DNA from: a virus
Taxonomy: Duplodnaviria; Caudoviricetes
IMG/VR virus record: IMGVR_UViG_3300029305_005547
Span: 128,001-192,000 of that record
Reading direction: 5' to 3' (one strand)
DNA length: 64,000 nucleotides
The notes beneath the pieces were generated by a model. That model was not told where the DNA came from, did not search any database, and saw nothing but the letters and a program-made list of their open reading frames with translations. Made by a program: the position numbers and the translations under genes. This document shows, piece by piece, positions 3,271 through 44,319 of the stretch (position 1 is the first letter of the stretch; each line of letters starts with the position of its first letter).

Positions 3271-3350
3271 ACGGAATTTAGTTAAGTAAAATTTCTGTAA
3301 GTCTCGATATTTCTCGGGACTTACAGATTCTTTATTTAGCTAAATAGTAA
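3271..3350 (+). repeat. 80-bp tail-fibre cassette element, copy 1 (L box, hairpin spacer, R box)
   Basis: ACGGAATTTAGTTAAGTA-aaattTCTGTAAGTCTCGAtatttcTCGGGACTTACAGAttctttatttag-CTAAATAGTAA; near-identical to four other copies. Confidence 0.97.
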
Positions 3351-3627
3351 GGTGGATAAATCGGGAATTGTTTTTAGAAATTTTAGATCATTTTCAGTTA
3401 AAAGTACAAATCCTATTGCGGTAAACGCTTATGAAATAATCACCCTAGATTTGTCTTCATATAATTATACAAAAAGTCCACATGCATTTATTTCTTCAAC
3501 TTTTTTATGTTCAGTTACTATATCTAATACATCGGCAACTTCAGTAACAGTTACATTATATAATTTATACGGATCATCTCAACAGTGCAGTTGTGTAATA
3601 TATTTATTTGAGTTAAATTCAGTATAA
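3340..3627 (+). other. Silent tail-fibre C-terminal cassette 1 (95 aa, LNSKVDKSG...)
   Basis: Frame opens directly after the in-frame TAG at CTA AAT AGT AAG; no RBS; beta-rich Ser/Thr domain; followed by a terminator at ~3630-3670. Confidence 0.8.
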
Positions 3628-3722
3628 TAAATAAATGAGAATGAAGATATCTTCATTCTCATTTATTTTTCCACATAAATACTACAAATAAAAACATTAT
3701 ACTAAACTATTAAAACGAAAGG

Positions 3723-5267
3723 ATGATAAAGACTATGGATCCTTTAATGAATAACTCCGTAATCAATTTCATTGACGAAGTTAATAAGCAGCGTTCTTTA
3801 GACGAATCTATCAACAAGATCAATGATGATCCGGTTGTGAAACTCCGTCGTTTGAACGAGACTAAACAACAGGGTGTCAATGCTTGTATGAATTCTATAT
3901 TAGCTAAAATCTGCAAAGATGCAGTTCCCGAGGTTAACGGACGAGTAGCTTCTACTCCCGATTTGGATAAAGTAGTAGCAGACTATGTTTCCAGAAGAAC
4001 CGGTGGAAAAGACTTAGAGTTCTATGTAAAAGAAGCAATCAGACGTAACCCTAAGAACACATCAGTGATTAAGAACGTATTTGAATCTGTAGAGCGTATC
4101 GTAAGAGAGCAATACACAGACAAATCTCTCAATCCTGATACAATTACCGAAGATGATTACAAGTTTGAAATAACTCCTGAGATTGATGACAAACTCGTTG
4201 CAGTCATTCGTGATAATAATCTTGATGATCTTGCAGAAGTTATCAAAGATAACGTAAGAGAAACTGCAATCTCTGAAGTAGAACTTGCGAAAAAAGAAAA
4301 AGAAGAGCGTTTAGCTCTTGAAGAAGAACTTACTAACGATGAATCTATCACTACAGAAGCTGCTCTTGAAGAAGCTTTAAGAGAAAGAGGAATCGGTAAG
4401 ACTACTTCTATCTATACACCTTCATTATTTGAAGCTGTTATGGTTAATAAGTTTAATTCTATGAATATGACAGAATCTGTCATCACAGATGTTACTTATG
4501 AAGCCGGATATGTTACTGAAGGTGTAATTGATAAACTTAAAAACGCATTCAAGGCTAAATCAGAGGCTGATGCAAAAGAAACTATTGCAAAGAATCATTC
4601 AAATTTCCTTGCAAATATCGAAGAATGGTACAAAACTGTCTACTCTGATTACCGCAGCAAGATTAGTCCGGTTGACTTTAAGAAATTAGCAAAGACTGCT
4701 AAAGAAATTTTAGCAGATCCTCATGTTGATAACATTACTGTCAATGGTCCCATTCTTTCTGATGTTAAAGATGCATCTGTATCCTATAAAGATAACATGA
4801 AGAATCTCATGAATGAGAAGAAGTATGTAGCGTTTAGCGTTCCTACATCTAAGAAGAGTTATCCTGCAAAAGATGCTATAGATGAAATGATGAAAGCAGT
4901 AGATGCTCTTGACAGTTATTTTGAAAAGCCTGATGTTAAATCATACGTTAACAAAGCATCTGCATACATCAGTGCTAAAGCTAACAAATGTGAAAATCCT
5001 AAGGATGTCAAGACTGTTTATGATCTTGGTGTTCAGTATTATCTTGCAGATTTGGCATACTACATGGTTGCGATTACATTTGTAGATTCTGTAGTTAGTG
5101 CTATGAAGCAGATGATTAAGACATATGAAAAAGTTGCTGTTAAGGAAGCAGCATTTGATGCTGCAGTAACAGAGTATACTTTACTTAGTCTTTCTAAAGC
5201 GTTATATCTTGAAAGTTTTAAACTTGCAGATATTGACAGCTTAGCTAAGGAATATGCTATGAATTAA
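3723..5267 (+). CDS. Putative virion (internal head) protein
   Basis: Late-type promoter AACA-N6-TAA at 3693; TES/TEG acidic processing-like motifs. Confidence 0.6.
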   Translation: MIKTMDPLMNNSVINFIDEVNKQRSLDESINKINDDPVVKLRRLNETKQQGVNACMNSILAKICKDAVPEVNGRVASTPDLDKVVADYVSRRTGGKDLEFYVKEAIRRNPKNTSVIKNVFESVERIVREQYTDKSLNPDTITEDDYKFEITPEIDDKLVAVIRDNNLDDLAEVIKDNVRETAISEVELAKKEKEERLALEEELTNDESITTEAALEEALRERGIGKTTSIYTPSLFEAVMVNKFNSMNMTESVITDVTYEAGYVTEGVIDKLKNAFKAKSEADAKETIAKNHSNFLANIEEWYKTVYSDYRSKISPVDFKKLAKTAKEILADPHVDNITVNGPILSDVKDASVSYKDNMKNLMNEKKYVAFSVPTSKKSYPAKDAIDEMMKAVDALDSYFEKPDVKSYVNKASAYISAKANKCENPKDVKTVYDLGVQYYLADLAYYMVAITFVDSVVSAMKQMIKTYEKVAVKEAAFDAAVTEYTLLSLSKALYLESFKLADIDSLAKEYAMN

Positions 5268-5309
5268 ATATATCACCTTACTCCAAATCGGAGTAAGGTG
5301 ATAATTATT

Positions 5310-6830
5310 TTATTTTATTGAATCTGATAATAATGTGAATTCATCTAATGATAATTCATTATTAATAAATGATTCTTTTAAAGCAGATTCAGTTGTAGTT
5401 GTTGATTTAATTTCTTCTACTGGAATAGGAAGGCTTGTATCTACATAAATAGATCCAGCATTGAATGATTTACATGTAGGATCAATAAATGCAGTTCTTA
5501 TATTTTCTTTTGGAGTATATCGTGACAGATCAGATTCTGGAACATCCTCACCTCTGTAATCTTTACTAAGAGTAAAATATACTCTTTTTGTAGGGTATAA
5601 TTTACTGCCTTCACGTTTTCCTTTAAAAGATGGAATCAATTCTTTTATTCCTTTTTTAGGTGAAACATGAAGAAGCATTGTTTCATTAGGAATTGTTATT
5701 TTTCTTGGTTCAGCTTCAGTGTAATCGCATATAGCTTTATCACCGTCAACAGTAATTTTTTTGATAATAGAATTTTTTCCAATACCAAAAAACTTACAAA
5801 TCCAATTAAATGCTTTCTTGTAAATAGTATAATTATTACTATTTTTAGCAATGTCATAATTAGATCTTATTTCTTTCTTGTCCTTATTAGAAATATCCTT
5901 TTCAGAAATTTCATCTTTAAGATTTTCACTTGCTTTTTTCCAAGTATCCTTTAAAAATTTAGTTCCTGAAATAGATCTTGTAATTTCTCCTATTTTTTCT
6001 TTAATTCCTTCCTGATATACTTCATCATCTTCAACAAATTTAAGACCGTAATATTCCATAAAATCTTCAAGATTATCAAATTCTGGTCCTAAATCATAAT
6101 CAACATATTCTTGTACTAAATCATCAGATTTTTTCAATATGTCCTGAATTTTCTCTACTTTAATAGGAGATGATGTAACAACATAAACAGCACCCATTGT
6201 ATATGTTGGAACTAAAGGATCTAAATATGCAGTCTTTATATTTTCAGTACATACATAAGTAGTGGTTTTCTCATTTTGTTTAATATCTGCTGCAAATTTT
6301 GGCATTTCTTTTCTCAAAGTAAAATACACTCTTTGATCTGAATACATATAACTTTTAGCAGATTTACCTTTAAATTGAGGATTTAAAGATTTAATAGAAT
6401 CATTGGTTGATGTATGATATAAAATACTACCATTAGGAATAGTAATCTTTTTAGGAGCAACGCCATAAAGAATTTCTACAGAATTATGCTCTTTATCTTT
6501 ATTCAATTTATATTGAACGATAACTACATCATTTTTAGGTATACCTGTAAGTTTACACAGTTTATTATAATAAATTTTATATTCAGTAAACGTGGATGAA
6601 GCTCTCATATCATGCAATGCTTTTGAAATTTCATGAAATTTATCTTCATCCAAATCTTTTTCTTCATAAGTTTTTGTAGCTTTTGTTGTAGGTATCCAGT
6701 CTTTTTCAATACTTAATCTATCTTTAAGTTCTCTTACTTTAGAACCAATTTTACCACGAACAGATTCTTCTACTACATCAGAGTTCTTATAGTTAGTAAC
6801 TATATTTAATAATGCTTCATAATTAGCCAT
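5310..6830 (-). CDS. Putative virion protein with two tandem ADP-ribosyltransferase-like repeats
   Basis: Internal duplication (KITIPN..LYH.S...L.P.FKGK...RVYFTL...ENI.TA..DP...G..YV); late promoter at 6856-6868. Confidence 0.55.
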   Translation of the reverse strand: MANYEALLNIVTNYKNSDVVEESVRGKIGSKVRELKDRLSIEKDWIPTTKATKTYEEKDLDEDKFHEISKALHDMRASSTFTEYKIYYNKLCKLTGIPKNDVVIVQYKLNKDKEHNSVEILYGVAPKKITIPNGSILYHTSTNDSIKSLNPQFKGKSAKSYMYSDQRVYFTLRKEMPKFAADIKQNEKTTTYVCTENIKTAYLDPLVPTYTMGAVYVVTSSPIKVEKIQDILKKSDDLVQEYVDYDLGPEFDNLEDFMEYYGLKFVEDDEVYQEGIKEKIGEITRSISGTKFLKDTWKKASENLKDEISEKDISNKDKKEIRSNYDIAKNSNNYTIYKKAFNWICKFFGIGKNSIIKKITVDGDKAICDYTEAEPRKITIPNETMLLHVSPKKGIKELIPSFKGKREGSKLYPTKRVYFTLSKDYRGEDVPESDLSRYTPKENIRTAFIDPTCKSFNAGSIYVDTSLPIPVEEIKSTTTTESALKESFINNELSLDEFTLLSDSIK

Positions 6831-6933
6831 AGTTATTTCCTTTCTATAAAGTTTATTAATAATTTGTTTCGAGCCTTAAAATACCTCAAAATAAACTATA
6901 GAAACAACTTATTTATAAGAAAGGAGTGTAATT

Positions 6934-7227
6934 ATGTTAAATTCAAACCAATTTTCAGATTTAGATGCTGCTAAAAGCGATCTTGAAAGCAAACAGATTA
7001 TTTTAAAGACAGGAATTGATGTGCAGGCATTGCTTAGAATTTTAGTCGATAAAGAAATAATCACAAGAGAAGAAATTAATAAATATAGAGAAGAGGTAAG
7101 TTCTTCTCCAAAATATGCAAATGCTCTTAAATATGTTGAGCAAACCCTTGAAGAAATTAAATATTACGAGACTCATCCTCAAGAGAGATTGCAGGAAATG
7201 TTTAGACGAAAGATGCAGGAAAAATAA
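6934..7227 (+). CDS. Hypothetical protein
   Basis: AAGGAG RBS, 97-aa ORF. Confidence 0.7.
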   Translation: MLNSNQFSDLDAAKSDLESKQIILKTGIDVQALLRILVDKEIITREEINKYREEVSSSPKYANALKYVEQTLEEIKYYETHPQERLQEMFRRKMQEK

Positions 7228-7228
7228 T

Positions 7229-7654
7229 ATGGACAATACAATTATAATTAAAAACTTTAATCCTGGTGCTAAAGGATTTAAAGTTATGAGAAAAGAACAA
7301 GAAGGATGTTCTGTATTAGCAGAATTTAAAAGAATACCAGATACAGGAATTGGTGATATGAGTGATGGATACCATACTTTTAATGAATTATATCACCATA
7401 GAGCAATATTATTTTCTGTTATCTGTAATATGTTTAAAGATAAAGCATGGAAATCATTAATGCATCATGATGGTAAGATGTATGATGGTATGTTCATTGT
7501 AGGAATTGAAACACCTAATGGGCAAGCAACATATCATTATGATGTAGATCCTTATTTTGATTTATTTGATGTAAAGGAACTTGAAAATGCTCCGGAATGG
7601 GATGGTCACACACCTGATGAAGCAATTGAAAGAATTAAATCTTTGGTTGTGTAG
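7229..7654 (+). CDS. Conserved phage protein (SDGYHTF...WDGH type)
   Basis: SDGYHTFNELYHHR, WKS..H.DG, GQATYH and WDGHT motifs; start moved to the ATG at 7229, just after the upstream stop. Confidence 0.75.
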   Translation: MDNTIIIKNFNPGAKGFKVMRKEQEGCSVLAEFKRIPDTGIGDMSDGYHTFNELYHHRAILFSVICNMFKDKAWKSLMHHDGKMYDGMFIVGIETPNGQATYHYDVDPYFDLFDVKELENAPEWDGHTPDEAIERIKSLVV

Positions 7655-7680
7655 TATCAGACTATTGAAGTCATGTGGTC

Positions 7681-7698
7681 ACGGAATTTAGTTAAGTA
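7681..7698 (+). repeat. Isolated L box of the cassette element (left boundary of the expression module)
   Basis: Exact 18-bp match ACGGAATTTAGTTAAGTA, not followed by the hairpin spacer. Confidence 0.92.
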
Positions 7699-7846
7699 TT
7701 CTAAACAAAACCCAAAAAGTTAAGTAACTTAAAAAAAATTATATTTAATCGATAAAATAACAAAAAAAGTAAGGGTAGTTACAGCTACCCTTACTTGAAT
7801 ATTCCAAGATTGGCTTGTATGAGCATTTTGACCTCTTGTTTTCTAG

Positions 7847-8017
7847 TTAGAACAACTGATCAGACAATGCCTGAATCAAAGCCATTCTAACTGAGAAAAT
7901 GTTGGCATATCTGTTTGGATCAGACTGCCAAGCTGTCATGAAACTAGCATCGGTATCAAAACCGTTTGCTAGTTTCATTTCGTTGTATAACTTTCTCAAG
8001 TTATCAATATAACTCAT
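7847..8017 (-). CDS. Small hypothetical protein (56 aa) inside the L-R module
   Basis: AGGAGG RBS before ATG 8017; GATATATTAT early motif at 8051-8060; terminator hairpin at ~7765-7797. Confidence 0.7.
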   Translation of the reverse strand: MSYIDNLRKLYNEMKLANGFDTDASFMTAWQSDPNRYANIFSVRMALIQALSDQLF

Positions 8018-8209
8018 GTTAAAACCTCCTTCCTTAGAATATTCATGATAATAATATATCATCGAAAATATAAGGATTTCAGAGATTTTTTTACACATCT
8101 ACACAGCTTTCTAATATAAAAACATTCTACTAAGTAATTACCATAGAGAAATCTATGGGTCTCAATTATTTTTTCATGAAAGAATAATAGAAAAGGAGGC
8201 GCTCGAGAT

Positions 8210-10090
8210 ATGGCGACTACAAGAAAACATATTGAGATGACCCGCATTGATTCAAGCGGTAATCAGGATATATTATATCCAAAGAATACACTCGCCGATG
8301 TCCACACAAGTTCGACATCCGGCGTTACAATTGAAGGAAAGGTAATGTTCTACGGTACTTGTTCTACAGCCGCTGCAACAGCTGCAAAAGTAGCTTCTGC
8401 AACAGGTTTTGTTCTTAAGGCAGGTGCTCATGTTACCGTTAAATTTACAAATGCTATTACTGTAGCAAGTGCTACATTGAACGTAAATAGTACAGGTGCA
8501 AAGGCAATTCATTACGAAGGTGCAGCTTTAAAGGCTAACGTTATTCGTGCTGGCGCTTCTGTTGAGTTCGTTTACGATGGTACTAATTACCTCGTAGTTG
8601 CAGGTGTAAATCCTGCATATGTTGAAAATAAGAATACCACTAAGTTCTACTTACTTGGTACTCCTAATAATGCAGCAGGAATGCCTTCTGCTGAATATTT
8701 TGATACTGGTGTTTATGTAAGTACAACATCAGGTCAGTTAGTTGCAACATCATTCTCTGGTAATGGTTCTGCATTAACAAACTTAAATGCAAGTAATGTT
8801 AAAAGTGGTACATTAGCAGCTGAAAGACTTGCTACATCTGGCGCAACAGCAGGTTCATATGGATCTTCTGCAGATGCAACTGTAGCAGATTCAGGATCAT
8901 TCACTGTGCCTTATGTAACAGTAGATGCATATGGTCGTGTAACAGCAATTAAAAACGTTACTCTTACATTGACAAGTGATGCTAACTCTGATACAAAAGT
9001 TACAAATACCTTGAATACTACAGCTAAAGCTTATATTACAGGTACTACTTCTGCAACAACAAATACTGGTACTCAGGTATTTGATACTGGTGTTTACCTT
9101 GATACAACTGCAGGAAGACTTACTTCCAGCTCTTTACTTACCGGTACATGTTATTTAGGAAGTTCAACTTCTAACTACATTAACGGTACAAACTATACCG
9201 GAACTGCTGCAAAAGTTGGTACACTTTCTGGTTGGTTGATAGATAGTTGTGCTTCTGCAAGTGCTAACGGAGTAACCAATAAGGCGCTTACAGCAAACCA
9301 GGGCTATTTGTTGCAAAATCAGATTGATACACTAAATAGTAATATGAGTAGTTATTTACCTTTATCAGGTGGAACATTAACTGGTACATTAACAAGTAGA
9401 AATGTAACACCTAGTGCTAATGTATCATATTCATTAGGTTCGACAACAAGAGTATGGACAAATTCATTTGTTAAAACCATGTATATATATGATGGTACAA
9501 ATACATCATCTAATTGCGGAAGTTTTGCAGTTTCTAATGTAGGTACAACATCTGCAGAAGGAATAGCATATCTAATGGTTGGTAATGCTACTTCGTCAGG
9601 AACAGCTGGAAATTCTACTGGTAGATTGCGTCTTTATAATAAGTGGGGCGGTTATGCTGATATTATACCAACAGTTAATAGAAGAGATAATTATACTTTA
9701 AAATTACCTGGAGAAGCTGGAGTATTAGTGAGTGACAACACGATAAAACATGTTGTTGGTAGTACTAAGACTGGAAAAGTTAGTACAAATGAAATAGCTG
9801 GGTTGATTGGTGTTGGTGGAGTTATACTTTCTATGCAAGTATTTGCCCAGATAAATGGAAGTACTACTATTGTAGTATCAACGGAAATACCAAGGAAATC
9901 TGACGTTTCAAGAATAAGAGCAGGATATTTTCAAAATATGGGGGTTTCTGATTCTAATGGTGGAGCTGTATATTGGGATATAGATCAAAGTTTTAATATA
10001 TCTTTAGCATATGCCTATTTGAATGGTACTGAGTATTCAACTACAACAAAATGGTGGATTGAATATACTTATATTGACATTGTCTCATAA
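8210..10090 (+). CDS. Tail fibre / receptor-binding protein (expressed locus: constant aa 1-374, variable tip from L375)
   Basis: Gly/Thr/Ser-rich fibre repeats (FDTGVY twice, YLPLSGGTLTG), AGGAGG RBS, late promoter at 8121-8133. Confidence 0.88.
   Translation: MATTRKHIEMTRIDSSGNQDILYPKNTLADVHTSSTSGVTIEGKVMFYGTCSTAAATAAKVASATGFVLKAGAHVTVKFTNAITVASATLNVNSTGAKAIHYEGAALKANVIRAGASVEFVYDGTNYLVVAGVNPAYVENKNTTKFYLLGTPNNAAGMPSAEYFDTGVYVSTTSGQLVATSFSGNGSALTNLNASNVKSGTLAAERLATSGATAGSYGSSADATVADSGSFTVPYVTVDAYGRVTAIKNVTLTLTSDANSDTKVTNTLNTTAKAYITGTTSATTNTGTQVFDTGVYLDTTAGRLTSSSLLTGTCYLGSSTSNYINGTNYTGTAAKVGTLSGWLIDSCASASANGVTNKALTANQGYLLQNQIDTLNSNMSSYLPLSGGTLTGTLTSRNVTPSANVSYSLGSTTRVWTNSFVKTMYIYDGTNTSSNCGSFAVSNVGTTSAEGIAYLMVGNATSSGTAGNSTGRLRLYNKWGGYADIIPTVNRRDNYTLKLPGEAGVLVSDNTIKHVVGSTKTGKVSTNEIAGLIGVGGVILSMQVFAQINGSTTIVVSTEIPRKSDVSRIRAGYFQNMGVSDSNGGAVYWDIDQSFNISLAYAYLNGTEYSTTTKWWIEYTYIDIVS
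9332..9342 (+). repeat. R box within the tail-fibre gene (CTAAATAGTAA, encoding L-N-S-N)
   Basis: Identical to the 3' end of all five 80-bp elements and in the same reading frame. Confidence 0.88.
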
Positions 10091-10225
10091 TCTATCTAGA
10101 TGATCCATGACTGAAAAGTTAATTACAGAATAAAAAATATGGTATACTATATAGTATACCATATTTTTACTCCGAAAATATCGAGAAAACAAAATATTAA
10201 TGTTGAAAGAAAGGAAATGAAACTC

Positions 10226-10399
10226 ATGAGTATTTTTACAAATTCTGAGAAAAACTTTCTTAGTTCTCTCGGTGATGAAATATTTGTAGAGTCTTCAAAG
10301 TCAGAATGTAAAAAAGTTTTTGATACGGCGTATAAAGTATTGGAAGAACTTGGGTTTACTCCAAATATCGGTAAAAAAGAAAAACTAAAAGTACTATAA
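10226..10399 (+). pseudogene. Truncated head-protein-like gene (5' fragment)
   Basis: Late promoter at 10188 and RBS; IFVES motif like the head family; runs into an unrelated fragment at ~10385. Confidence 0.45.
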
Positions 10400-10744
10400 A
10401 TACATCAGGAAATCTTATTACATTTAAAGCTCCATGTAAAAATTATAAATATGCTAAAGTTACTCTAGCATATGGTTATTATGCAAATTACGGTGATTTT
10501 AAAATCACTTATACATTACCCGGAGGAAGTACTGTTTCATTAATCGATAAAGCGTATAGTGATGGTCAAAGTGGTGGTATATTAACAAAAACATTTACCA
10601 TAGACACTTCTACATTAGCCAGTGATGATACAAGTACATTTAAAGGAACTCTATATCTATTAAATAGAAGTAGTAATAGTGTATATTGGGGTTTTAATGG
10701 TTGTATTGGAATATAAAAAAATTGAATTGACTAACACAGCATAA
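10390..10744 (+). pseudogene. 5'-truncated, frameshifted paralogue of 44333-44920
   Basis: Start-less frame ...ITFKAPCKNYKYAKVTLAYGYYANYGD...LYLLNRSSNSVYWGFNGCIGI*, then IELTNTA* in another frame; matches MTFTSNIKNFTYAKV...NYGD...LYNRSSN...NGGIG...VLTNTA*. Confidence 0.75.
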
Positions 10745-11483: not shown

Positions 11484-12803
11484 TTATTCATCTAAGTTAT
11501 CTACAAATTGAAATGTGAGATCTTCATCTCTATCAATAGTAATAAGCTTACGCTCTTTAGTAGATAAATCTTCATTAATCGATAATCCATATAAAGTATC
11601 TAAATCATCAGATACTGTAAATAAAACAAAATTATCATTTTCATAGTTCAGGATAGTTAACATATTATTTTCGTTATTATTCTTGATATTTGCAATCAGA
11701 ATTTTACAATCAAGTTCAGCCTGAATATACATCTTGAACTGATCGTCTATAACGAAATTAACTTTAACATTATCCCCTTTATCAATATATGATTTAACCG
11801 AGTCTGAATTAAATCTAAGTAAATCAGATTTTAATTTTTCCATATTCCCTGTAAGTGATCTGAAAATACCGGAATCACCGAAAACTGTAATATCAGACTC
11901 AGATTTACCCGAAAATTCGGGAGTAAAAATTTCAATATCAGAAGTATTTTCAAAGAAAGGTGTACATATAGCATTTTCAGATACTTTCTTTACAAATCCT
12001 GTTTTGTAAAGATGTAATGCTAATGTAACATCTTTTGCTTTTATTTCTAAATTTTCATTTTTGTTGTCACCATTTCTTCCATGAATAAATAACAGAACAA
12101 ATGGATCAGCAGCGTCATTAGATCCACGAATCAGATCAACATCAAAATTGTAAAGTTCGTAAAGTGACGATAACACATATGCGAAATCATTCGAATCCAT
12201 AGGTTTACAGAATCTCGTGTATTCTAACAACTTAAAGAAGTAATTAAAGAATGACTCTGTTAAAGTATACTCTTCTTTACTTCCCATGTATTTATATAAT
12301 AACATACATGTTCTTACACAAGGTTCCAAAATGGATTCTAATAAAAATCTTGATATCGTTTCATAATCTTTTTTTGAATGATAATTCCACATAAACATGA
12401 TATATTTCTTTACGAAGTAGCATATTTTGTAATACAGTTCTCTCACATTATCAATAGAACCTATTGTCAATGTTGAAAGATAGGTATCGAAATTCCAAAT
12501 GAATTTACCTTCATTAGTAGCTTCCTTATAACTAGGAAGTGGCTTTAATAAAGGATTATTAATCCATTTTAATCTGATATCATCAATATGCTTTGTATTT
12601 GCAACAATAAGACCATTATCATCTCTCATAAGTGGTACTTTACCATCTAATCCAAAATGGTCTTTATTCTCAATAATTATTCTTTGAACTTGGAAAGGGA
12701 GTATTGAAAATACTTTTCCCAAAAACAAAGCATCATTTTTATCAATAGAACCATTAGAGAAAGATTTTAATCTATCTCCATAATCTTGTCTTATTAAATT
12801 CAT
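11484..12803 (-). CDS. Hypothetical protein
   Basis: 439-aa ORF with AAAGGA RBS. Confidence 0.8.
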   Translation of the reverse strand: MNLIRQDYGDRLKSFSNGSIDKNDALFLGKVFSILPFQVQRIIIENKDHFGLDGKVPLMRDDNGLIVANTKHIDDIRLKWINNPLLKPLPSYKEATNEGKFIWNFDTYLSTLTIGSIDNVRELYYKICYFVKKYIMFMWNYHSKKDYETISRFLLESILEPCVRTCMLLYKYMGSKEEYTLTESFFNYFFKLLEYTRFCKPMDSNDFAYVLSSLYELYNFDVDLIRGSNDAADPFVLLFIHGRNGDNKNENLEIKAKDVTLALHLYKTGFVKKVSENAICTPFFENTSDIEIFTPEFSGKSESDITVFGDSGIFRSLTGNMEKLKSDLLRFNSDSVKSYIDKGDNVKVNFVIDDQFKMYIQAELDCKILIANIKNNNENNMLTILNYENDNFVLFTVSDDLDTLYGLSINEDLSTKERKLITIDRDEDLTFQFVDNLDE

Positions 12804-14928: not shown

Positions 14929-14975
14929 AGGATTTGATGCGCTACTGTAGTTGAAGATATTAGGTAGGGGGTTGG

Positions 14976-15055
14976 ACGGAATTTAGTTAAGTAAAATTTC
15001 TGTAAGTCTCGATATTTCTCGGGACTTACAGATTCTTTATTTAGCTAAATAGTAA
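14976..15055 (+). repeat. 80-bp cassette element, copy 2
   Basis: Identical to copy 1. Confidence 0.97.
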
Positions 15056-15413
15056 CGCATCTGTTATTGGAGATATATTTACATCATATGGACAAATGAC
15101 ATGTGTTGGAAGTGAAGGTGGTGGAACTGGAAGTACAAGTACAAATGTAAATGACATACCTAATGGTATTTACTGCGCAATTATCACAGTTGAAGCATGG
15201 GTTGGACAAAATACAAACGTACAAATAAATTCTAATGGCATCAATACCAATAATACATTTATGTATGCATATCAGACAGGAAGAAATACAATTCAGCATG
15301 TATCTATAGTAAATATAACTAACGGCATATTTACAATTTATTTATTTCATAATGATTCTGTAAGTGAGGCACGTGCATTTAATTGGCGCGTTACATTAGT
15401 ACGTATAAAATAA
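15045..15413 (+). other. Silent tail-fibre C-terminal cassette 2 (122 aa, LNSNASVIGD...)
   Basis: Open from CTA 15045 after TAG; the listed ATG at 15096 is internal and in frame; terminator at ~15426-15460. Confidence 0.8.
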
Positions 15414-25707: not shown

Positions 25708-25791
25708 TAATTTATTTTTTATTCACAAAAATATTATATGTTTGAAAATGCTGACTTTACGGTTCATAGAAAAGTAGTTTGAAGTGCTGTT

Positions 25792-25871
25792 ACGGAATTT
25801 AGTTAAGTAAGTTTTCTGTAAGTCTCGATATCTCTCGAGACTTACAGATTCTTTATTTAGCTAAATAGTAA
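25792..25871 (+). repeat. 80-bp cassette element, copy 3
   Basis: Few substitutions versus copy 1; stem TCTGTAAGTCTCGA/TCGAGACTTACAGA is perfect. Confidence 0.97.
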
Positions 25872-26460
25872 GAATTACCCTCCTACATGGACGTTTGGAT
25901 CTAATGGAAATGTTAATGATTTAGCATATACAATGCATACACAATTTAGTTCAGTGAAATCAGGATTTTGTTATTTAGGTGATAGTAATTCTATGTATGT
26001 CGGTATTTCTCGAACATCAGGTGATGTAGGATCTATTTTATTTGCAGATATAGCAAATACCGGAAAAGTATATTTATGGAATAGATCGACTATTCATGAA
26101 AATGGATATATACTAAAAACACTAGCATTTCAAGAATCATTTGATCCTGTTGTAGATAGTTTTACATCGTCATATATTCAAGTTACTGTATCAAAAAGCG
26201 GTAAAATAAAAAATATATTTTTTAATTCTACCCCAAGTGCTGATTTAATAGCAAAAACATCCTATCATCTTACAACCATTACTAATAGTAATTATTTACC
26301 TTCACGTGAATTTAAAAAAGAAATATGTATTTCAACTACATCTGACGGAAAAATATATACAGCTAATTTAACCATTACAACTGGCGGAGCAGTATATCTA
26401 TATCCTCGTCAAACAATTTCAGTCAGTATCCCATTATATGTAAATGAGTTTTTCATTTAA
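25861..26460 (+). other. Silent tail-fibre C-terminal cassette 3 (199 aa, LNSKNYPPTW...)
   Basis: Open from CTA 25861 after TAG; ATG 25933 is internal; C-terminal YLPS...ITTGGAVY resembles fibre-tip domains. Confidence 0.8.
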
Positions 26461-31943: not shown

Positions 31944-33248
31944 TTAATAATTCATTTCTTCTTCAATGACAGTAAGATCATCCTGAGTAAGCATTGACAA
32001 TTTACTTTCAAGAACTGGAACGATATTTCCAAACATAATCTTGTAAAGTTCCTTATCTTTTCTAAACTCCTCATGAACGTTCTTCAATGAGAACTTACGA
32101 TCTTTTTCATTATTGAAATAGAAGCTATTTTTGTTTCCGCCGGTAAGTCCAAGTTCTTTTGCATATGCAATACTAGATCTTACAGGATCAATTCCTCTAA
32201 CCTTATCATACACAAGGCTGACAAATCGACCTGCTTGGTTTCCTCTAGATTTTACAATCATTACACGAATACCAAAACCATCAAATCCATCATCTTCCAT
32301 TTCATATTTCTCTGATCCTACAGCTACAAATTTAAGTAGAATAGATGCATTAAACTGAGGACTTTTTCCTCCAGGAAGAGCTTCATTTTGTGCAAGATAC
32401 AAAATCTCTGATGGTTCATGTACAAATCCAAGCTGTGGTTTGTCTTTAATTTGATTGATAGTAATCAAGATAATATTAGCTCTTCTAAGATAAGGAAGAA
32501 CTTCATTAAAGAATCTTCCGATTTCACCGGTAATTCTCATACGTTCTGTTTGACTACCTACTTCTTCCAAACGAGCCATATCTTTTTTATCATTTTCATT
32601 GAAACCTGTGCTAAGTGTAGCAATGGAATCAATGATAATTACAGTAGGTTCAAAGATTTCAATCTCTTCACCAAACTCATTTAATTTACCTGTTTTATAT
32701 TTATACAGGTCAGGATGATCAACTTTCTGCTTGTAAATACGCATCAATGTAGCTTTAATATCATTAATAGTATTAAGCTCTTGACGAAGTATATACTTAC
32801 CTGCAGCAATATCACTCATAGAGAACTTTGTTAAGTTCTGAATACGAGAATAATTCATTGCCTGTTCAAGGTCAAAGTGAACAATAAAACCATTCTTAAA
32901 AGGTCTTACAATATTAGCAGCTACCTGTGCAGCTGTAGTTGTTTTTGCAGTTGATGGTTTTCCAATAAACGTAACCATAGAACCGCCAGTAATACCGATA
33001 GAAGGATATGAATCTATAACCTGATCATCTTTATCGTATACATTAACACGGTATCCCAAATAATAATCAAGCTGAGGAATACCTGTTTTATAGGTAACAA
33101 CTGACGCATTACCGTCAAAATAATCTTCATCTTTTTTATCTGTGCTTTTTAAAGCTTCAACGATTCCAATAGTCTTACGACCTTCAATATTACTCAAAGC
33201 TTCTTCAACACTAATAAGTTCAGTTTTCTTTGTTGCCATATTTGTCAT
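31944..33248 (-). CDS. RecA/UvsX-like recombinase
   Basis: TGIPQLDYYLG, GKPSTAKTT, IIIDSIA, INQI, PGG, VKSR. Confidence 0.88.
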   Translation of the reverse strand: MTNMATKKTELISVEEALSNIEGRKTIGIVEALKSTDKKDEDYFDGNASVVTYKTGIPQLDYYLGYRVNVYDKDDQVIDSYPSIGITGGSMVTFIGKPSTAKTTTAAQVAANIVRPFKNGFIVHFDLEQAMNYSRIQNLTKFSMSDIAAGKYILRQELNTINDIKATLMRIYKQKVDHPDLYKYKTGKLNEFGEEIEIFEPTVIIIDSIATLSTGFNENDKKDMARLEEVGSQTERMRITGEIGRFFNEVLPYLRRANIILITINQIKDKPQLGFVHEPSEILYLAQNEALPGGKSPQFNASILLKFVAVGSEKYEMEDDGFDGFGIRVMIVKSRGNQAGRFVSLVYDKVRGIDPVRSSIAYAKELGLTGGNKNSFYFNNEKDRKFSLKNVHEEFRKDKELYKIMFGNIVPVLESKLSMLTQDDLTVIEEEMNY

Positions 33249-33324: not shown

Positions 33325-33609
33325 TTACATCTTACCTACTGCAATCCATAATACACCTGGTTCTAAATCACCATCATTTGTATTGTGTACATGAAGTTCA
33401 AATCCAGTTTTATAAATATTTCCTATACAAATATTAAGATTTCCATAATTATAATCTTCTGAATTTGACATAAATGTTGCAAATACTTTAGGTACAACTC
33501 TATATTCTGTATCAAATTCTATATCAAAAGTTGTACGAGTTTTTGATGCAACAACACTATTTATTATTCTACCTGTTTGAATATAATTTATTTCTGCGTT
33601 ACTATTTAG
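33325..33609 (-). other. Silent tail-fibre C-terminal cassette 4 (94 aa; H-type-lectin/gp53-like tip), absent from the ORF track
   Basis: Hand translation: LNSNAEINYIQTGRIINSVVASKTRTTFDIEFDTEYRVVPKVFATFMSNSEDYNYGNLNICIGNIYKTGFELHVHNTNDGDLEPGVLWIAVGKM*. Confidence 0.85.
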
Positions 33610-33678
33610 CTAAATAAGAAATCTGTAAGTCTCGAGAAATATCGAGACTTACAGAAATTTTACTTAACTAAATTCCGT
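33599..33678 (-). repeat. 80-bp cassette element, copy 4 (inverted orientation)
   Basis: Reverse complement of copies 1-3 and 5. Confidence 0.97.
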
Positions 33679-33705
33679 CCCATACTAACATATGTGTATA
33701 CGAAT

Positions 33706-37826: not shown

Positions 37827-37842
37827 AAAAGAAGGAAGTAGG

Positions 37843-38109
37843 TTATTCTACTTCCTTCTGTTTCTTTTCATTTTTAAGTTCTTCAAGACGTTTTTCAGCA
37901 TCTCTTATATCAGCCTCCAATGTTCCAATGGATTTCTCCATCATTCTTCTTGCTGATACAATTTCATGCTTTCCCATTACTATGGCAAGACCTGTTCTAT
38001 TAGATAAATCAATGAATTCTTTCTTGTACTGAACCAATTTTTGTTTCATTCCATTAAGCTCCTGTTCAAGAAGCATAATTTCCGTTTCCATTATTATAAG
38101 TTCACTCAT
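37843..38109 (-). CDS. Coiled-coil hypothetical protein (88 aa)
   Basis: GGGAGG RBS before ATG 38109; the longer ORF call extends into a structured RNA-like region. Confidence 0.65.
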   Translation of the reverse strand: MSELIIMETEIMLLEQELNGMKQKLVQYKKEFIDLSNRTGLAIVMGKHEIVSARRMMEKSIGTLEADIRDAEKRLEELKNEKKQKEVE

Positions 38110-38124
38110 AGTGTAACCTCCCAT

Positions 38125-38445
38125 ATAAAAAATTTCGAGATTATCCGACGGAAGGTGTAGCCCTGTTATGGCTATCTTTATAAACCTCCCATCGGATTCT
38201 CCTTTTGTTTTCCCTTTGTTACCAAAGGGGTTTGGCTTGATTCTCCCTTCCACTATTACCATGGTTAGGGCGCGTGCCAGTTCGAATACTTTCGTACTCT
38301 ACTTTACTCAGTTCTCATTGAAAGTCTTTCTCTTCCAACTACCTTTTCAACAGCCTAGGGGTGACTTTTAACAAACTCTATGGTTTGCCTATCTTTCGAT
38401 ATTTCGGTTACACCCTCCACCCATTCCCGTAGGGAGTAGGGTGGA
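38125..38445 (-). ncRNA. Candidate large structured RNA
   Basis: GC-enriched; hairpins TATC-GAAA-GATA, GAGTAC-GAAA-GTATTC, CCCTTTG-GTAA-CAAAGGG, TCCC-TACG-GGAA on the minus strand. Confidence 0.5.
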
Positions 38446-38503
38446 TATTGACACGCTTATACATTCAGATGAACAAGAGAATCATTTATGTAGAACTGAG
38501 ACC

Positions 38504-38941
38504 TTAGTCTTCAGTTGCTACCTCTTCATCTGCATCAGCTTCTTCTTCAAAAGCTTCTGCAACTTCTTCAGCGATCTCTTCGATCTTCTGAGATACTTCA
38601 GCTTCCATATGCTTCTTAGCAGCTTTTTCAGCTTTCTTAATTTCGTGCTGAGCCTTAATATCTTCAGCCTTATCAGATACTGCATTACTGATCTTACTAA
38701 TACCTTTCTTAACACCAAGGTATGCAGTTCCTACTGCTACACCGGTACCATGAGCAATAAGTCCAACAGTATCAAGTACCAATGTACTTGCCACGTTGAC
38801 ACCCACGTCATAACCGAAGTTCTTACAGGTCTTCTTGAACTTTCTTCTCTCGAAGTAATTCATTCCAGCTGCCTTAGTCATCTTATCGAAACCTGCGTTT
38901 GCTTTCTTGCTGATAGTTGCGATTGTATTAGTTTTCTTCAT
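38504..38941 (-). CDS. Hypothetical protein (hydrophobic middle, acidic tail)
   Basis: GGAGG RBS inside the conserved leader. Confidence 0.75.
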   Translation of the reverse strand: MKKTNTIATISKKANAGFDKMTKAAGMNYFERRKFKKTCKNFGYDVGVNVASTLVLDTVGLIAHGTGVAVGTAYLGVKKGISKISNAVSDKAEDIKAQHEIKKAEKAAKKHMEAEVSQKIEEIAEEVAEAFEEEADADEEVATED

Positions 38942-38945
38942 ATAA

Positions 38946-39066
38946 ACCTCCGGCTCTTGGCTTTCGCCTCCACCATAAAATTAATTTAATTGCCTCACTT
39001 TATTGTGAGCGCTATTTAGTTGTGTCTGCCTATAGATCACTATGAATATGTGCTATAGCGCTATGA
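38946..39066 (-). promoter_or_regulatory. Conserved structured 5' leader, copy B
   Basis: Same five blocks as 25611-25707 with different intervening hairpins. Confidence 0.75.
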
Positions 39067-39153
39067 AGTTTTTATAAGGATAGACGATTTTTATTATCAT
39101 CATTTCCTTTATTTCACATAAATATTATATGTTTATAAATTCCGACTTTACGG

Positions 39154-39495
39154 TTAACCTCTTCTACATGGTTTAATACCAAGTAATTCATCCATTCTCT
39201 CAGAGAATATTTCATTGAAATCTTCTAATATCTCATTTTCATCTTCCGATATAGAACGAATCACAGAACCGTTTAGTCCGTAATTTATCATCTCTTTGTC
39301 TTTCCAACCGAGTTCAATAGTTTCATCCCGGTCGATAATATCTTGACAATGCATATAAAACTTACTATTTGTCGGATTTAATTTATCACATAAATTTACA
39401 TATGCATGAGATAATGAAACTTTTAGCTTGTAGCTTCTTTTCCTTCGTTCATCTATTGAAGGAGCTTTGGATTTTTCTTTATTTAGTTTTTCCAT
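39154..39495 (-). CDS. Hypothetical protein
   Basis: GGGAGG RBS, early motif at 39530-39539. Confidence 0.7.
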   Translation of the reverse strand: MEKLNKEKSKAPSIDERRKRSYKLKVSLSHAYVNLCDKLNPTNSKFYMHCQDIIDRDETIELGWKDKEMINYGLNGSVIRSISEDENEILEDFNEIFSERMDELLGIKPCRRG

Positions 39496-39601
39496 GAGCG
39501 TTACCTCCCTATATTAATTTGTCACTATAATAATATATCTATGAAAAGTTTAATTTTTCGTTGAAAGGACTTTATTTTAATGAAAGGAGGTAATCCATTA
39601 C

Positions 39602-40427
39602 ATGGGACGATTGAAAAAATATAATGGACGCCTTTATGATATAGGAACATCTAATGTGTCTTTTCTTCAGTTAGCTACTGACTTAAAGCAATTAGGTGTT
39701 AAGAACTACTATTTCATGCTTGAAGTATATGATCCTGTAGTTTTAACTATAGATCCTTATAAATGCGATGAAAATGGTGTTTGTACATTAACAAAAGATG
39801 AGATTGTACGAGTAGTTACTGAATGTAGAAGAAATCCATGGTATTATCTAAGAGAAGTATGTAGAATACCTGATCCTGGTAATCCTAAGGGAATTCCTTA
39901 TAAAGCAAATCGAGGAAATATAGCACAAGCATTTTTATTCTTACACGGAATAGATTCATGGCTTTGTTTACCTCGTCAGCAAGGTAAAACGCAATCTGCA
40001 CTTGCTATTCAGGCTTGGGGGTATTCATTTGGTACTACAAATACATCATTTATTTTTGTTAATAAACAACAACCCGACGCAAAGGAAAACTTAGCACGTA
40101 TTAAGACACAGATAGATTTATTACCTGAGTATTTGCGATTTGAATCATTCTTTGATGATGAAAATGGTAAAACTGTGAAAGCTATTAAAAACGCTACAGA
40201 AATGAGGCATCCTGTAACTAAGAACAGAATTTCTGTTCGTGCAGGTGCTGCTTCTAAAGCGAAAGCTATTTCACTTGCTCGAGGTTTATCTGCTGCTATT
40301 ATTCATTATGATGAGCCAGAGTTTACTGACTTTATAAAAGAAATTGTGGAAAACTCTGTATCAACTTATGAAACAGCTGCACGTGCTGCAGAAATGAATG
40401 GATCATTATACGGAAGAATCTTTACGT
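39602..40427 (+). CDS. terL: Terminase large subunit, exon 1
   Basis: NPWYYLRE, ANRGN, Walker A PRQQGKT, RGLS, Walker B YDE; spliced product 718 aa. Confidence 0.92.
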
Positions 40428-41105
40428 GGATTTTACGCGTAAGTAAAACCTCTTTAATTGCGGGAACGAATTCGTTATGTCTTTACTACTAAACTAAGAT
40501 AGTAATATACTTAGTGGCAATGGGTAACTCCAAAGGTATAGTAAAAAGGTAAAGAATAGAATCAATCCGCAGCGAAGATATAATCGTAAAAATAAAAAAA
40601 TAAGATTGCTCTTATTTTTTCCTATGCAAGGGCTGCTCGGGCTTGCACTGTCACCCGTCTGTTTAAGTGCTGTGGAGTGGCTAGTTCCACTTGGCTTTTG
40701 ATTCTACATAGGTTTTGTTTGGAGCAGCCTCATAATCACCACGTCCCAACCAATACTGCCGTATGGTGGTTAGCCTAGACGTTACGCCCCTAGGCCTGCG
40801 ATTCTTGTATACCGGTTCGTGTTGATACAGTGTGTAATCCCTTTTATATTACACTATACAAGATTAGGGTAAATAATAACTCCTTATGAACCGGACTGTT
40901 TTTATTATTTACACTAAAATATTATATGTTTGAAAATTTTAACTTTACGATTATATAACGTTCAACGACTATCGAAAGCATAACTATAGAGAAATACTAT
41001 AGTGAAGAAGCGAGTAGAGTAGGAGAAATCCGAAATAGGAGGCAATATTAATTTGGTAACAGAATTAATATTGAAGATATAGTCTAATATTTTTAACAAA
41101 ATATG
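40428..41105 (+). mobile_element. Group I intron 1 of terL (no endonuclease ORF)
   Basis: P1 UUACGU/GCGUAA; AATTGCGGGAA, AATCCGCAGC, GTTCAACGACTA, GAAGATATAGTCT; ends ...aaatatG; splicing restores FT-C-TPGD. Confidence 0.9.
40590..40915 (-). ncRNA. Candidate antisense ncRNA nested in the intron P6 loop
   Basis: Own promoter-like motif at 40919-40950, GC-rich hairpins, terminator-like hairpin at ~40590-40620, no long ORF. Confidence 0.5.
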
Positions 41106-42008
41106 GTACCCCAGGAGATCTTGATAGTAATGCTGGTATTTCAGCTCAAATAATTCTTGATAAGACCGTTAAGTGGTCAGAGCGTTTATACGATATGACT
41201 AAAGATGAAATGAAAGAATTTGCTAAAGCTGGTGAATCTAACCGCATTATTTATATTGAGTTCCAGTATTATCAGATTGGTTTGGATGAAGAATGGTTAT
41301 CTAAGATGAGTAATATGATCGGTGATGCACTTGTTGTTCGTCGAGAAATCCTACTTCAGAGATTACATGGTTCATCACTTTCTCCTTATCCTCAGGAAGA
41401 TATTGAGTATATCGTCGAGAATATGCATAAACCAATCGATGTTTTATTTGTAAAAGATTACTACCAGTTTATGATTTATGAAGAATTAGATCCTTCTATT
41501 CCTTACATTGTCGGTGTTGACTGTTCAACAGGTACAAATAAGGATAATAATGCTATTACTGGTATTAATCCATATACAACTAGACCTGCATTTGAATTTG
41601 CTTGTTCTTATGTTGGTGAAACGTTGTATGAACAGATTATTATTGAATTAGTAACACGCCATGTACCTAAAGCTATCGTTTGTGTAGAACGAAATAGTGT
41701 AGGTGATGGTATTATCGACCATTTACTTCAGTCAAGAATTGCATCTAGATTATATTATGATAGAGCAAAAGATCTTACTGAAGAAAACAAAAAAGAATAT
41801 GAGACAATAGAGTCAATGCTTAAAAAACAAGCAGCACAAAAATCTTTCTATGGTGTATACACAGAAGGTCATTCTAGAGAAGCAATGTTTGCTATTCTGG
41901 CTAGACGTATTTCTGAAAATAAAGATGATTTTATTGCAGAGAACGTTATTACAGATATATCTCGATTAGTACGTACATCATCAGGAAAGATTGCAGCTGG
42001 TCCAGGCT
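41106..42008 (+). CDS. terL: Terminase large subunit, exon 2
   Basis: RREILLQR, YIVGVDCSTG..KD, VERNSVG nuclease motifs. Confidence 0.92.
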
Positions 42009-43201
42009 CGAAAATCGCTATGAATTCTACATTTATAATGCATCAACATATCATTAATTATTAATGAATTGAGGTGCATTTATTTTGCCAATAATAAAAG
42101 AAATAGAAGATAATAGAGAAGGAATTGAATTTAAAAAACTTATAACTTTATCAAATGGAATAATTGGGAAAAATATCACTATTGATATTAAATATAATGA
42201 TGAAATATATAAAATTCAAACTAAATATTTAATAACTGAGGATAGTCGAATATTTAATATATTTACAGAAAAAGAACTTAAAGGATATATATCAAAAGAT
42301 ACAGGATATAAAGTCGTAAATCTTCAGTTAGGTAAAGCAGGTGAATACAAAACACAATTAATTCATAGATTAGTTGGAAAAGGATTTATTCCTAATCCAG
42401 AAAATCTTCCAGTTATAAATCATGAAGATGGTGATAAATTAAATAATGACATTTCTAATCTTGTTTGGTGTACATATTCGTATAATAATTACCATGCTTT
42501 TAGAACTGGTTTAAAGAAACCAACAAGTGTTTCATCTGAAAAATGTAATTTAACAACTCATACAATAGAAGAGGCTACATTGGTTTGTGAATTATTATCA
42601 AAAGGGATATCACCTAAAAAAATATCTAATGATTATAATTTAGGGTATGATTTTGTATTACGTATTCGTAAAAGAGAAACTTGGAAAGAACTTAGTAAAA
42701 ACTATAAATTTAAAAAGACTAAAAAAGCTTCTGCAATTTTTTCATATAATGAACTCGTTAAAATAGAAAATCTTTTTAAACAAGGATTTTCAGTACGAGA
42801 GGTTATAAATGAAATGGGATGGGAATATGACGAAAAAATTCGTAGTAATGTCAAACATTTAAAATCAAAGTTTGAAAAAGGCAAAAAATTTGTAGAATTT
42901 GAATAGAATAGTGGAGGTCTGGTTAAACCTCTTTAATTGCTGGGAACTCTCGTTAGGTCATCAGTACAGTAAAGTGTGACAATCTGATGAATAGAGACAA
43001 TCAGCAGCCAAGACTTATTATTATAAATAATAAGTAAGGTTCAACGACTATCGAAAGCATAACTATAGAGAAATACTATAGTGAAGAAGCGAGTAGAGTA
43101 GGAGAAATCCGAAATTGGAGGCATCTTATATTTGGTAACAGAATATAAGATGAAGATATAGTCTGACCTATACAGAGATGTATAGATTAACGAAAAATAT
43201 G
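42009..43201 (+). mobile_element. Group I intron 2 of terL with an HNH gene in the P1 loop
   Basis: Exon CCAGGCU pairs with GGUCUGG at ~42916; core elements at 42930-43170; terminal G at 43201; splicing restores GPG-F-HDD. Confidence 0.9.
42085..42906 (+). CDS. HNH homing endonuclease
   Basis: IHRLVGKGFIPNPENLPVINHEDGDKLNNDISNLVW. Confidence 0.9.
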   Translation: MPIIKEIEDNREGIEFKKLITLSNGIIGKNITIDIKYNDEIYKIQTKYLITEDSRIFNIFTEKELKGYISKDTGYKVVNLQLGKAGEYKTQLIHRLVGKGFIPNPENLPVINHEDGDKLNNDISNLVWCTYSYNNYHAFRTGLKKPTSVSSEKCNLTTHTIEEATLVCELLSKGISPKKISNDYNLGYDFVLRIRKRETWKELSKNYKFKKTKKASAIFSYNELVKIENLFKQGFSVREVINEMGWEYDEKIRSNVKHLKSKFEKGKKFVEFE

Positions 43202-43629
43202 TTCACGATGACTCTGTAATGTCTTACTTAATCGCAATGTATGTTTTATATCATGGTAATAACTTACAGATATTTGGTTATTATCCTGGTGAAAGAGAAG
43301 AAAAACCTCGTAATCAAGGCATCTATGAGAAAACCGAATCCGAGCTTAATAAAGTTTTACCTACAGATGTTGCTCAAGCAATCATGGAAGAAAGAGAAGC
43401 CATGAAAGCATTAGATTATGAGGCTATATTACGAAACGCTATAGAAAGATCTCAAGCAGAAACATCAAGATTGGTTAATAGTTCACTTAACTATATACCA
43501 GAAGGTCTTGATTCTGATAATAAATACACTACGTTTGAAGAAGATGATGGTGGATATGATATGGGATTTTTCGATGATATGAATGGTCTTGGTGGTTCCA
43601 GTGATTCTGGAGGATCATTTCCATGGTAA
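43202..43629 (+). CDS. terL: Terminase large subunit, exon 3
   Basis: HDDSVMSYLIA nuclease motif, in frame with the listed ORF at 43219. Confidence 0.9.
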
Positions 43630-43782
43630 ATGAATAACAATAAAGTAACCAAATTAGACCCTTGGTTAACTGGCTGGATTACCCTTACGTGTAAAAGCGT
43701 AAGGGTATATCTTTTTTGTTATGAGTTGTATTACATAAAGTTGTCGAAAGGTCTATAATTCGATGATAATATGGTAAGGGTG

Positions 43783-43862
43783 ACGGAATTTAGTTAAGTA
43801 AAATTTCTGTAAGTCTCGATATTTCTAGGGACTTACAGATTCTTTATTTAGCTAAATAGTAA
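43783..43862 (+). repeat. 80-bp cassette element, copy 5
   Basis: One substitution versus copy 1 (ctaggg for ctcggg). Confidence 0.97.
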
Positions 43863-44319
43863 TATTACAACTCTAACTACTACTGTAAACGGTAAAGCTA
43901 ATAGTAGTCATACACATAGTTATTTACCATTAAGTGGTGGTACTATTTCCGGTGACATATATCCTTCGATATCTGATGAATATATTTTGGGTGGTACGGG
44001 TTCATATTGGTCTGGAGTAATATCAAGAACATTTTCAGCTATTAATTCAGACACACATACTTATGCTTTTTTAACATCTTATGAGACAGGAACGACTAGT
44101 AGAGTTGGTACCGGGCGTTTAGATTTAGGTAATGGAACTGCATCGGGTACAGCTGGTAATGGACGTGGTTTAATTCGTATGTATGGTACATCTTCCGGAT
44201 ATACACAAATTCAAACTGGTAATAATACAACGTCTAATATTACTCTAACCCTTCCTAGTAAAACTGGTACTATTCCCACAGTATCTTTATCTGGTACAGT
44301 ATTAACTATTACCACTTAG
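43852..44319 (+). other. Silent tail-fibre C-terminal cassette 5 (155 aa, LNSNITTLTTTVNGKANSSHTHSYLPLSGGT...)
   Basis: Open from CTA 43852 after TAG; homologous to the expressed tip (YLPLSGGT; GTTS..G...L..GN...SGTAGN..G..R.Y). Confidence 0.88.

Follow-up and report, generated by a model that had tools for sequence, protein, structure and literature searches.

The known systems closest to the one reported here are the Rin shufflon of Bifidobacterium prophages and the vsa and vpma loci of mycoplasmas. The Rin shufflon (Mavrich et al. 2018, PMC6109161) acts on a receptor-binding protein whose gene has a constant N-terminal part; several variable C-terminal genes lack a start and are each preceded by an asymmetric crossover site of 11 bp. 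Its enzyme is an armless XerD-like tyrosine recombinase. The vsa/HvsR system of Mycoplasma pulmonis and the vpma/Xer1 system of M. agalactiae (PMC2268961) set a unique promoter, ribosome-binding site (RBS) and 5′ coding piece before silent 3′ parts, with site-specific recombination by Xer-like tyrosine recombinases. Here we describe a tail-fibre gene and five silent fibre tips in a window of 64,000 nucleotides (positions 128001–192000 of the 278,849-bp IMG/VR record IMGVR_UViG_3300029305_005547), and the genome-wide tip library to which they belong, in a gut jumbo phage of ~279 kb. The fibre likewise has a constant N-terminal part, start-less alternative C-terminal parts and an 11-nt junction, the R box, and a Xer-type enzyme probably catalyses exchange of the tips.

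The layout differs from both precedents. Rin has three to five cassettes in one cluster beside rin, with plain 11-bp sites and inversions only (PMC6109161), whereas here 16–35 cassettes are spread over 150–190 kb among other genes behind hairpin sites of 81–93 nt, a second module boundary (the L box) is present, the module changes slot and the recombinase gene is far from the elements. The vsa and vpma loci encode bacterial lipoproteins in one compact locus beside the recombinase gene, change by inversions only and have neither hairpin docking sites nor reshuffling of the remaining genome, both of which are seen here (PMC2268961). New relative to these systems are the scale, the dispersal, the hairpin docks, a mobile module with two boundaries and the reshuffling of the genome.

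Literature searches found no description of such a dispersed, hairpin-docked tip system. In the R64 shufflon (Rci) and in Mu Gin, P1 Cin and p15B Min, C-termini of adhesins or tail fibres are swapped at short sites within the gene; the segments are clustered, and Gin, Cin and Min are serine invertases. By contrast, the tips here are dispersed and the 279-kb genome lacks a serine recombinase (PF00239). DNA searches of a cultured-phage collection with the fibre gene and with the element gave no match, nor did an IMG/VR search with the inner hairpin, and a first protein-based locus search of IMG/VR returned distant fibre N-termini only, none with the tip-library system.

The silent tip library and its expression locus

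A preliminary description of this DNA had reported five near-identical elements in the window, each leading into a start-less frame taken for a silent tip. The five copies are indeed 95–100% identical over 81 nt (BLAST E 1e-32 to 1e-42); those on the plus strand begin one base before the positions first quoted, and the minus-strand copy reaches one base beyond the quoted 33678.

3270–3350, plus: hairpin element 1, made up of L box, two-part stem and R box, with the stop TAG and then CTAAATAGTAA at its end (sequence comparison, folding)
14975–15055, plus: hairpin element 2 (sequence comparison)
25791–25871, plus: hairpin element 3 (sequence comparison)
33599–33679, minus: hairpin element 4, inverted relative to the fibre gene (sequence comparison)
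43782–43862, plus: hairpin element 5 (sequence comparison)

A genome-wide search, as the earlier account suggested, yielded 16 full 81-bp elements and two degenerate copies; the switch of six or more ways that it envisaged does have its library, with 16 tips rather than five or six. Each full element terminates in TAG followed by CTA AAT AGT AA, the R box (11 nt), while an L box of 18–22 nt forms the other end and a hairpin spacer of ~50 nt lies between. The predicted fold (−35 kcal/mol, z = −5.8) comprises an outer stem of 15 bp and an inner one of 14 bp; the inner stem with its T-tract additionally scores as an intrinsic terminator. The 11-mer by itself is not significant (7 hits at ≤1 mismatch against 4.7 expected), unlike the whole element and its reading phase, which are. 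An Rfam scan of the elements gave no intron or ribozyme match, either at the gathering threshold or at E ≤ 1. Homology of the element to the last 77 nt of the constant fibre part was considered and rejected, being no better than chance in an AT-rich alignment.

The expression locus has the same two boxes, set far apart:

7681–7698, plus: L box, equal to nt 1–18 of the element but lacking the hairpin (sequence comparison)
7699–8209, no strand: non-coding head of the module, with two GTTAAGTAA repeats, terminator, divergent gene, fibre promoter region and RBS (sequence analysis)
7847–8098, minus: divergent 83-aa gene in the module (open reading frame, ORF)
8210–9331, plus: constant fibre N-terminus, codons 1–374 (protein comparison)
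9332–9342, plus: R box CTAAATAGTAA, the junction and crossover region (sequence comparison)
9332–10090, plus: currently expressed tip, 252 aa (protein comparison)

Between the L and R boxes the module measures 1,633 nt, comprising the terminator, the divergent 83-aa gene, the promoter region, the RBS and codons 1–374, and it occupies the position held by the ~50-nt hairpin spacer in every other element. The constant N-terminus of 374 codons is present in one copy in the genome. As originally claimed, the 11-mer recurs in the fibre gene (8210–10090) in the same frame, at 9332, where it begins codon 375. The divergent 83-aa gene has no family match; it was rejected as a core part of the module, since the module of the lineage of a relative, G001, lacks it.

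Five silent tips lie behind the elements of the window:

3340–3627, plus: silent tip 1, 95 aa, beginning LNSK (frame analysis)
15045–15413, plus: silent tip 2, 122 aa (frame analysis)
25861–26460, plus: silent tip 3, 199 aa (frame analysis)
33325–33609, minus: silent tip 4, 94 aa, H-type lectin (frame analysis, H_lectin match 8e-07)
43852–44319, plus: silent tip 5, 155 aa; in strain L018 its orthologue type is the expressed one, as protein P0001 (frame analysis, protein comparison)

The lengths first given for these frames are correct. Genome-wide, all 16 full elements are followed by a stop-free frame of 94–457 codons in the CTA AAT AGT AA phase, and the other two frames close within 0–1 codons in every case. 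The first ATG, GTG or TTG lies 4–142 codons in or is absent, no RBS is found at the junction, and in-frame stops stand inside and just before the element, in line with the earlier view that the cassettes have no start of their own. In G001, a complete genome of 275,512 bp with direct terminal repeats, 35/35 elements are followed, after TAA, by an open frame of 90–276 codons in a single phase. Together, 51/51 cassettes in the two genomes are open, start-less and in phase, which argues that productive joins recur.

Judged by homology, the cassette products are fibre tips. Three cassettes are homologous to the expressed tip, among them cassette 5 (38% identity, 1e-15), and the lectin-like character of cassette 4 rests on its H_lectin match; both likenesses had been recognised beforehand. 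Two tips of the genome-wide set carry a Peptidase_S74 domain and one a weak B_lectin match, while several cassettes share HTHSYLPLSGGT-type repeats and ..LSGTTLTIT ends. These fibre motifs begin upstream of any possible start codon. A silent form of the expressed tip, sought as a stand-alone ORF, was not found. The silent cassettes gave pN/pS values of 0.28 and 0.73, from two comparable pairs only, too few to use. The cassettes span genome positions 19–172 kb, with 4/16 inverted relative to the fibre gene and 12/16 direct.

The same N-terminus is joined to other tips in related strains

A protein search with the constant part found nine further fibres, P0001 and P0002 at 95%, P0003–P0005 at 71–74% and P0006–P0009 at 65–66% identity. 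All nine are fused at ..QNQI(D/T)(T/E)-LN(S/C)(N/K).. to unrelated tips, and the proteins differ in length. These strains thus fuse the same constant part, at the same codon, to other tips, as expected from the proposal that silent tips serve one expression locus, and some of the tips behind the 374 codons are orthologous to silent cassettes of G001. The tip of P0001 belongs to the same type as silent cassette 5 and a cassette at genome 99801 (64–68% identity), and P0004 has an H-lectin tip. P0006, P0007 and P0008 combine a near-identical N-terminus with three different tips, the P0006 tip being the G001 silent cassette at 185575 (99% aa identity). Similarly, the tip expressed in contig L046 is the G001 silent cassette at 142762. 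The R box is found at the boundary between N-terminus and tip in three further lineages as well.

The position of the module was compared in loci L017, L018 (which carries P0001), L019/G001, L024, L046, L027 (74% lineage) and L025 (65% lineage). In L017, L018, L027 and G001, the module is preceded by an L box without a hairpin, as in the present genome. In L017, the module occupies the slot that it has here, with both flanks alike, but another tip follows; a truncated gene behind the present tip is read as the scar of a tip replacement:

10384–10719, plus: C-terminal remnant of a ~200-aa gene belonging to a family found behind several tips, left by an earlier tip replacement (comparison with L017)

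In L018, the L box is preceded by the flank of the element at 96094, the match to the module spans exactly from L box to R box, and behind the R box come a tip like that at 99801, its 197-aa neighbour gene and the next element. That flank belongs to one of the two degenerate elements of the present genome, both outside the window:

genome 41459–41518, minus: degenerate element 1, with L box and hairpin kept, running into an RBS and an ordinary gene
genome 96094–96169: degenerate element 2, its R box longer by one T and not followed by a tip; its upstream flank is the place where L018 carries the expression module

The order in L019/G001 is element, tip A (silent), L box, module, R box and tip B. 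L024 has the same upstream flank, then L box, module, R box, tip A (expressed) and element, so that its module sits one element upstream of the L019/G001 position. In L046, the module occupies a third slot and, compared with G001, lies on the other strand; L027 shows the order element, silent tip, L box, module, R box, tip. In L025, three inverted silent cassettes lie 6 kb upstream of the fibre gene. In at least five strains, then, the module replaces the hairpin spacer of a different element, and L017, L018, L024, L046 and G001 are isomers differing at the sites. The overlaps at the module joins are only 11–25 nt, too short for the joins to be assembly artefacts, and several of the fusion proteins recur in independent samples. 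These loci show that recombination within the L and R boxes has repeatedly set the module before other tips.

The fusions are present in the DNA of other strains, so a mechanism at the RNA level is not needed, and joining occurs in DNA and not in RNA. Trans-splicing or ligation of RNA, or translation of the tips alone from unusual starts, is accordingly barely credible, even though each cassette here looks like a separate unit between two terminators and the phage has one group I intron: no Rfam intron or ribozyme was found in the elements, in-frame stops stand in or just before the element without an RBS, and the fibre motifs precede any start codon.

The elements also mark changes in gene order. 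Between this genome and G001 there are 35 colinear blocks, scrambled in order and orientation, and 34/35 G001 elements fall in the gaps between blocks, with one inside a block; random placement put 9.7 in the gaps on average and never more than 21 (10,000 trials). In L024, the G001 plus strand at 185.9 kb is joined to the minus strand at 124.6 kb, at an element. The coincidence with breakpoints, together with this join, indicates that the elements are general rearrangement sites and do not act on the fibre gene only.

Full-length alignment of the element is possible across copies of three lineages, with the two-part stem kept and 6/20 pairs changed on both sides. Both boxes are conserved across lineages, as is the base of the inner stem. 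The G001 version measures 93 nt and has 35 copies, among which the centre is variable; in the present genome the centre is invariant, and all stem mismatches are G-T on the sense strand. In this genome it is the sense strand that folds better (16/16), in G001 the opposite one (33–35/35, depending on the energy set). A strand-specific single-stranded fold was rejected as a general rule, since G001 favours the opposite strand.

The metagenomic samples themselves were examined as Logan contigs, which are fragmented and have ~7–11x depth. The preliminary description had proposed looking for chimeric junctions in reads. The joints listed for the sample contigs are short-sided and none ends at an element, and loose ends did not map to this genome (G000) or to G001. 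An 831-nt contig found in two runs starts precisely with base 1 of the R box, the sole within-sample hint and a weak one; a left end of this kind would be expected from a tip that occurs in the sample behind two different sequences. Its right end is explained by a perfect 36-nt AT-rich palindrome just 3′ of the fibre gene (window 10133–10168).

Candidate recombinase and competing mechanisms

Of the tyrosine or serine recombinases that the preliminary description proposed to look for, only the first kind is present, as a single tyrosine recombinase of 341 aa (genome 64172–65197, outside the window). It matches PF00589 at 128 bits and, best of all models, NF040815 (XerA-type) at 231 bits against a 220-bit cut-off. 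The closest solved structures are XerA and XerD (PDB XerA 4a8e at 9e-32), the catalytic residues R, K, H-x-x-R, H and Y (RKHRHY) are readable in the sequence, and the G001 orthologue is 73% identical. We infer, on circumstantial evidence, that this Xer-type enzyme is the likely catalyst of exchange. A reverse transcriptase (PF00078), by which a diversity-generating retroelement would be recognised, is absent from this genome, and no Y1 transposase was found in it.

In the phage collection, the recombinase finds its best match (47% identity) in a gene flanked by inverted hsdS genes, which carry inverted repeats of 14–31 nt. This locus (L047, MT835621.1, 4026–13057), on an unannotated human-faecal phage contig, is a type I restriction-modification locus with hsdM, three hsdS parts and hsdR; a Xer-like recombinase between inverted hsdS genes and inverted repeats indicates a phase-variable specificity shufflon. 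An hsdS inversion locus is a usual setting of a DNA invertase. The hsdS shufflons with tyrosine invertases thus include the nearest phage-collection relative of the enzyme, and they differ from the present system in target gene, in their compact locus and in having no hairpin elements.

The in-phase library, the fusions in other strains, the different slots of the module and the breakpoints at elements are shown by the genomes themselves, and a system acting at the DNA level is well supported. We consider it probable that this is a receptor switch in which the module bounded by the L and R boxes is re-docked before other tips, with the Xer-type enzyme probably catalysing. At each of the 16 docking sites, the two boxes enclose a hairpin spacer of ~50 nt where the expression locus has the module. 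Hairpin, T-tract and in-frame stop would keep the promoterless, start-less tips silent in this genome. Exchange at the L and R boxes would re-assort module, spacers and tips, setting the module before another tip, and exchange between elements would invert or move the gene blocks between them. Were the enzyme an invertase, serial inversions between opposite sites could achieve this with no gene loss and would explain the shuffling of blocks; alternatively, a double exchange at L and R could swap module and spacer. Such exchange may be frequent enough to count as a switch.

Several observations weigh against re-docking of this kind. The recombinase gene adjoins no element and is 6–7 kb from the nearest. 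No L box is recognisable near the fibre gene in the L025/P0009 (65%) lineage. The compared strains are 3–6% apart in the module, so the rate could be slow, and no join was caught forming within one population. With 12/16 cassettes in direct orientation, pure inversion needs several steps. Finally, the inner hairpin of G001 is weak and variable, and the better-folding strand is not the same between lineages.

A more specific form of the switch, a genome-scale shufflon, we hold tentatively, as falling somewhat short of an even chance. Here a Xer-like invertase would move the module among 16–35 sites over ~280 kb, shuffling gene blocks as a by-product. As in known shufflons, a short crossover site is shared, the variable parts are start-less and in phase, and isomers are seen between strains; clustered segments flanked by inverted sites and adjoining the recombinase gene are not found. 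It had been argued beforehand that neither inversion nor excision could explain the layout. This holds for one simple event, given that the module changes slot and the blocks are reshuffled. The further step, that a different mechanism is implied, goes too far, as a tyrosine-recombinase shufflon could still operate, repeated inversions reaching cassettes in direct orientation.

We regard it as unlikely that no dedicated machinery is involved, the element being a conserved linker and general phage recombination, by homology or microhomology, producing slow modular evolution. Near-identical repeats of 81–93 bp are adequate substrates for phage recombination, a weak UvsX/RecA-like match is present at window 31944–33248, the 3–6% divergence of the compared strains agrees with slow change, and one tip replacement ended inside the neighbouring gene and looks illegitimate. 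However, the module joins rest on 11–22 nt of identity only, and 51/51 start-less cassettes open and in phase require recurrent productive use. Furthermore, in three of four lineages the module lies between L and R boxes that co-vary with the lineage's own element, and the Xer-type recombinase is conserved. Dispersed silent cassettes lacking promoter and 5′ end are also found in the Neisseria pilE/pilS system, which relies on RecA-dependent, non-reciprocal gene conversion with long flanking homology.

Still less probable is an exchange of the integron or CTX type, in which a folded single-stranded element (compare attC and attP(+)) would exchange one strand with a double-stranded R box. Integron attC/IntI and CTX phage attP(+)/XerCD share with the present system hairpin-forming sites, promoterless cassettes and tyrosine recombinases of the Xer/IntI branch. 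The conserved two-part stem with its internal loop and compensatory changes, the restriction of stem mismatches here to G-T on the sense strand, and the name of the recombinase's best model, 'tyrosine recombinase/integron integrase', all fit this scheme. In those systems, however, a cassette moves into a fixed platform, whereas here the promoter and N-terminus move. The recombinase scores only 83 bits with the integron-integrase model TIGR02249 against a 265-bit cut-off, and no cassette array, the mark of an integron, lies beside its gene. The better-folding strand is reversed in G001, and a single-strand exchange is one crossover, yet the L and R joins have both changed.

Accompanying genes and implications for the phage

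Several tips are followed by a gene of ~195–200 aa with its own start codon. Members of this family lie at genome 100440, 119500, 125364, 126488 and 172333, share an N-terminus and have no Pfam or PHROG match; they may be tip partners or chaperones. The last of them is in the window:

44333–44920, plus: ~195-aa gene of the tip-following family, with its own start codon (protein comparison)

Directly downstream of silent tip 4, an ORF at window 31944–33248 (minus) has weak KaiC/RecA-type ATPase matches and is possibly a UvsX-like recombinase. The group I intron of the phage, its only one, lies at window 42085–43185 (Rfam RF00028, 82 bits), ~600 nt upstream of element 5, between function-unassigned ORFs at 41195–42064 and 43219–43629; an HNH endonuclease ORF (42085–42906) is immediately 5′ of the ribozyme core. 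A 1,612-aa ORF at window 20344–25182 matches phage multisubunit RNA polymerase beta families (phrog_14872, 2e-165) and groups the phage, whose GC content is ~32% and whose source samples are animal faecal and bovine gut metagenomes, with jumbo phages encoding their own RNA polymerase.

Near the fibre locus of G001, a polyphosphate kinase and a PARG-like protein are encoded (L019:2162–4204 and 11935–12759). In the 65% lineage, a reverse-transcriptase gene (RVT_1; L026:9266–10414) lies ~2 kb downstream of the fibre gene, and a diversity-generating retroelement may operate there alongside the tip library.

Known fibre switches (Gin, Cin, Min and Rin) have 2–7 tips in one compact locus; here there are 16, and 35 in a relative, scattered over the genome. 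What moves is the gene's head, not the tips, and nearly every site coincides with a synteny breakpoint. The phage could change its binding target by rearranging its own DNA. If the exchange is programmed, no larger receptor-binding repertoire would be known from any single virus; the phage would also offer a natural means of cassette exchange at very short, defined sites, and a case of site-specific recombination shaping the gene order of a whole viral genome. Should the genome-scale shufflon prove true, these phages would have a fluid gene order and a library of dozens of tips from which to draw their host range.

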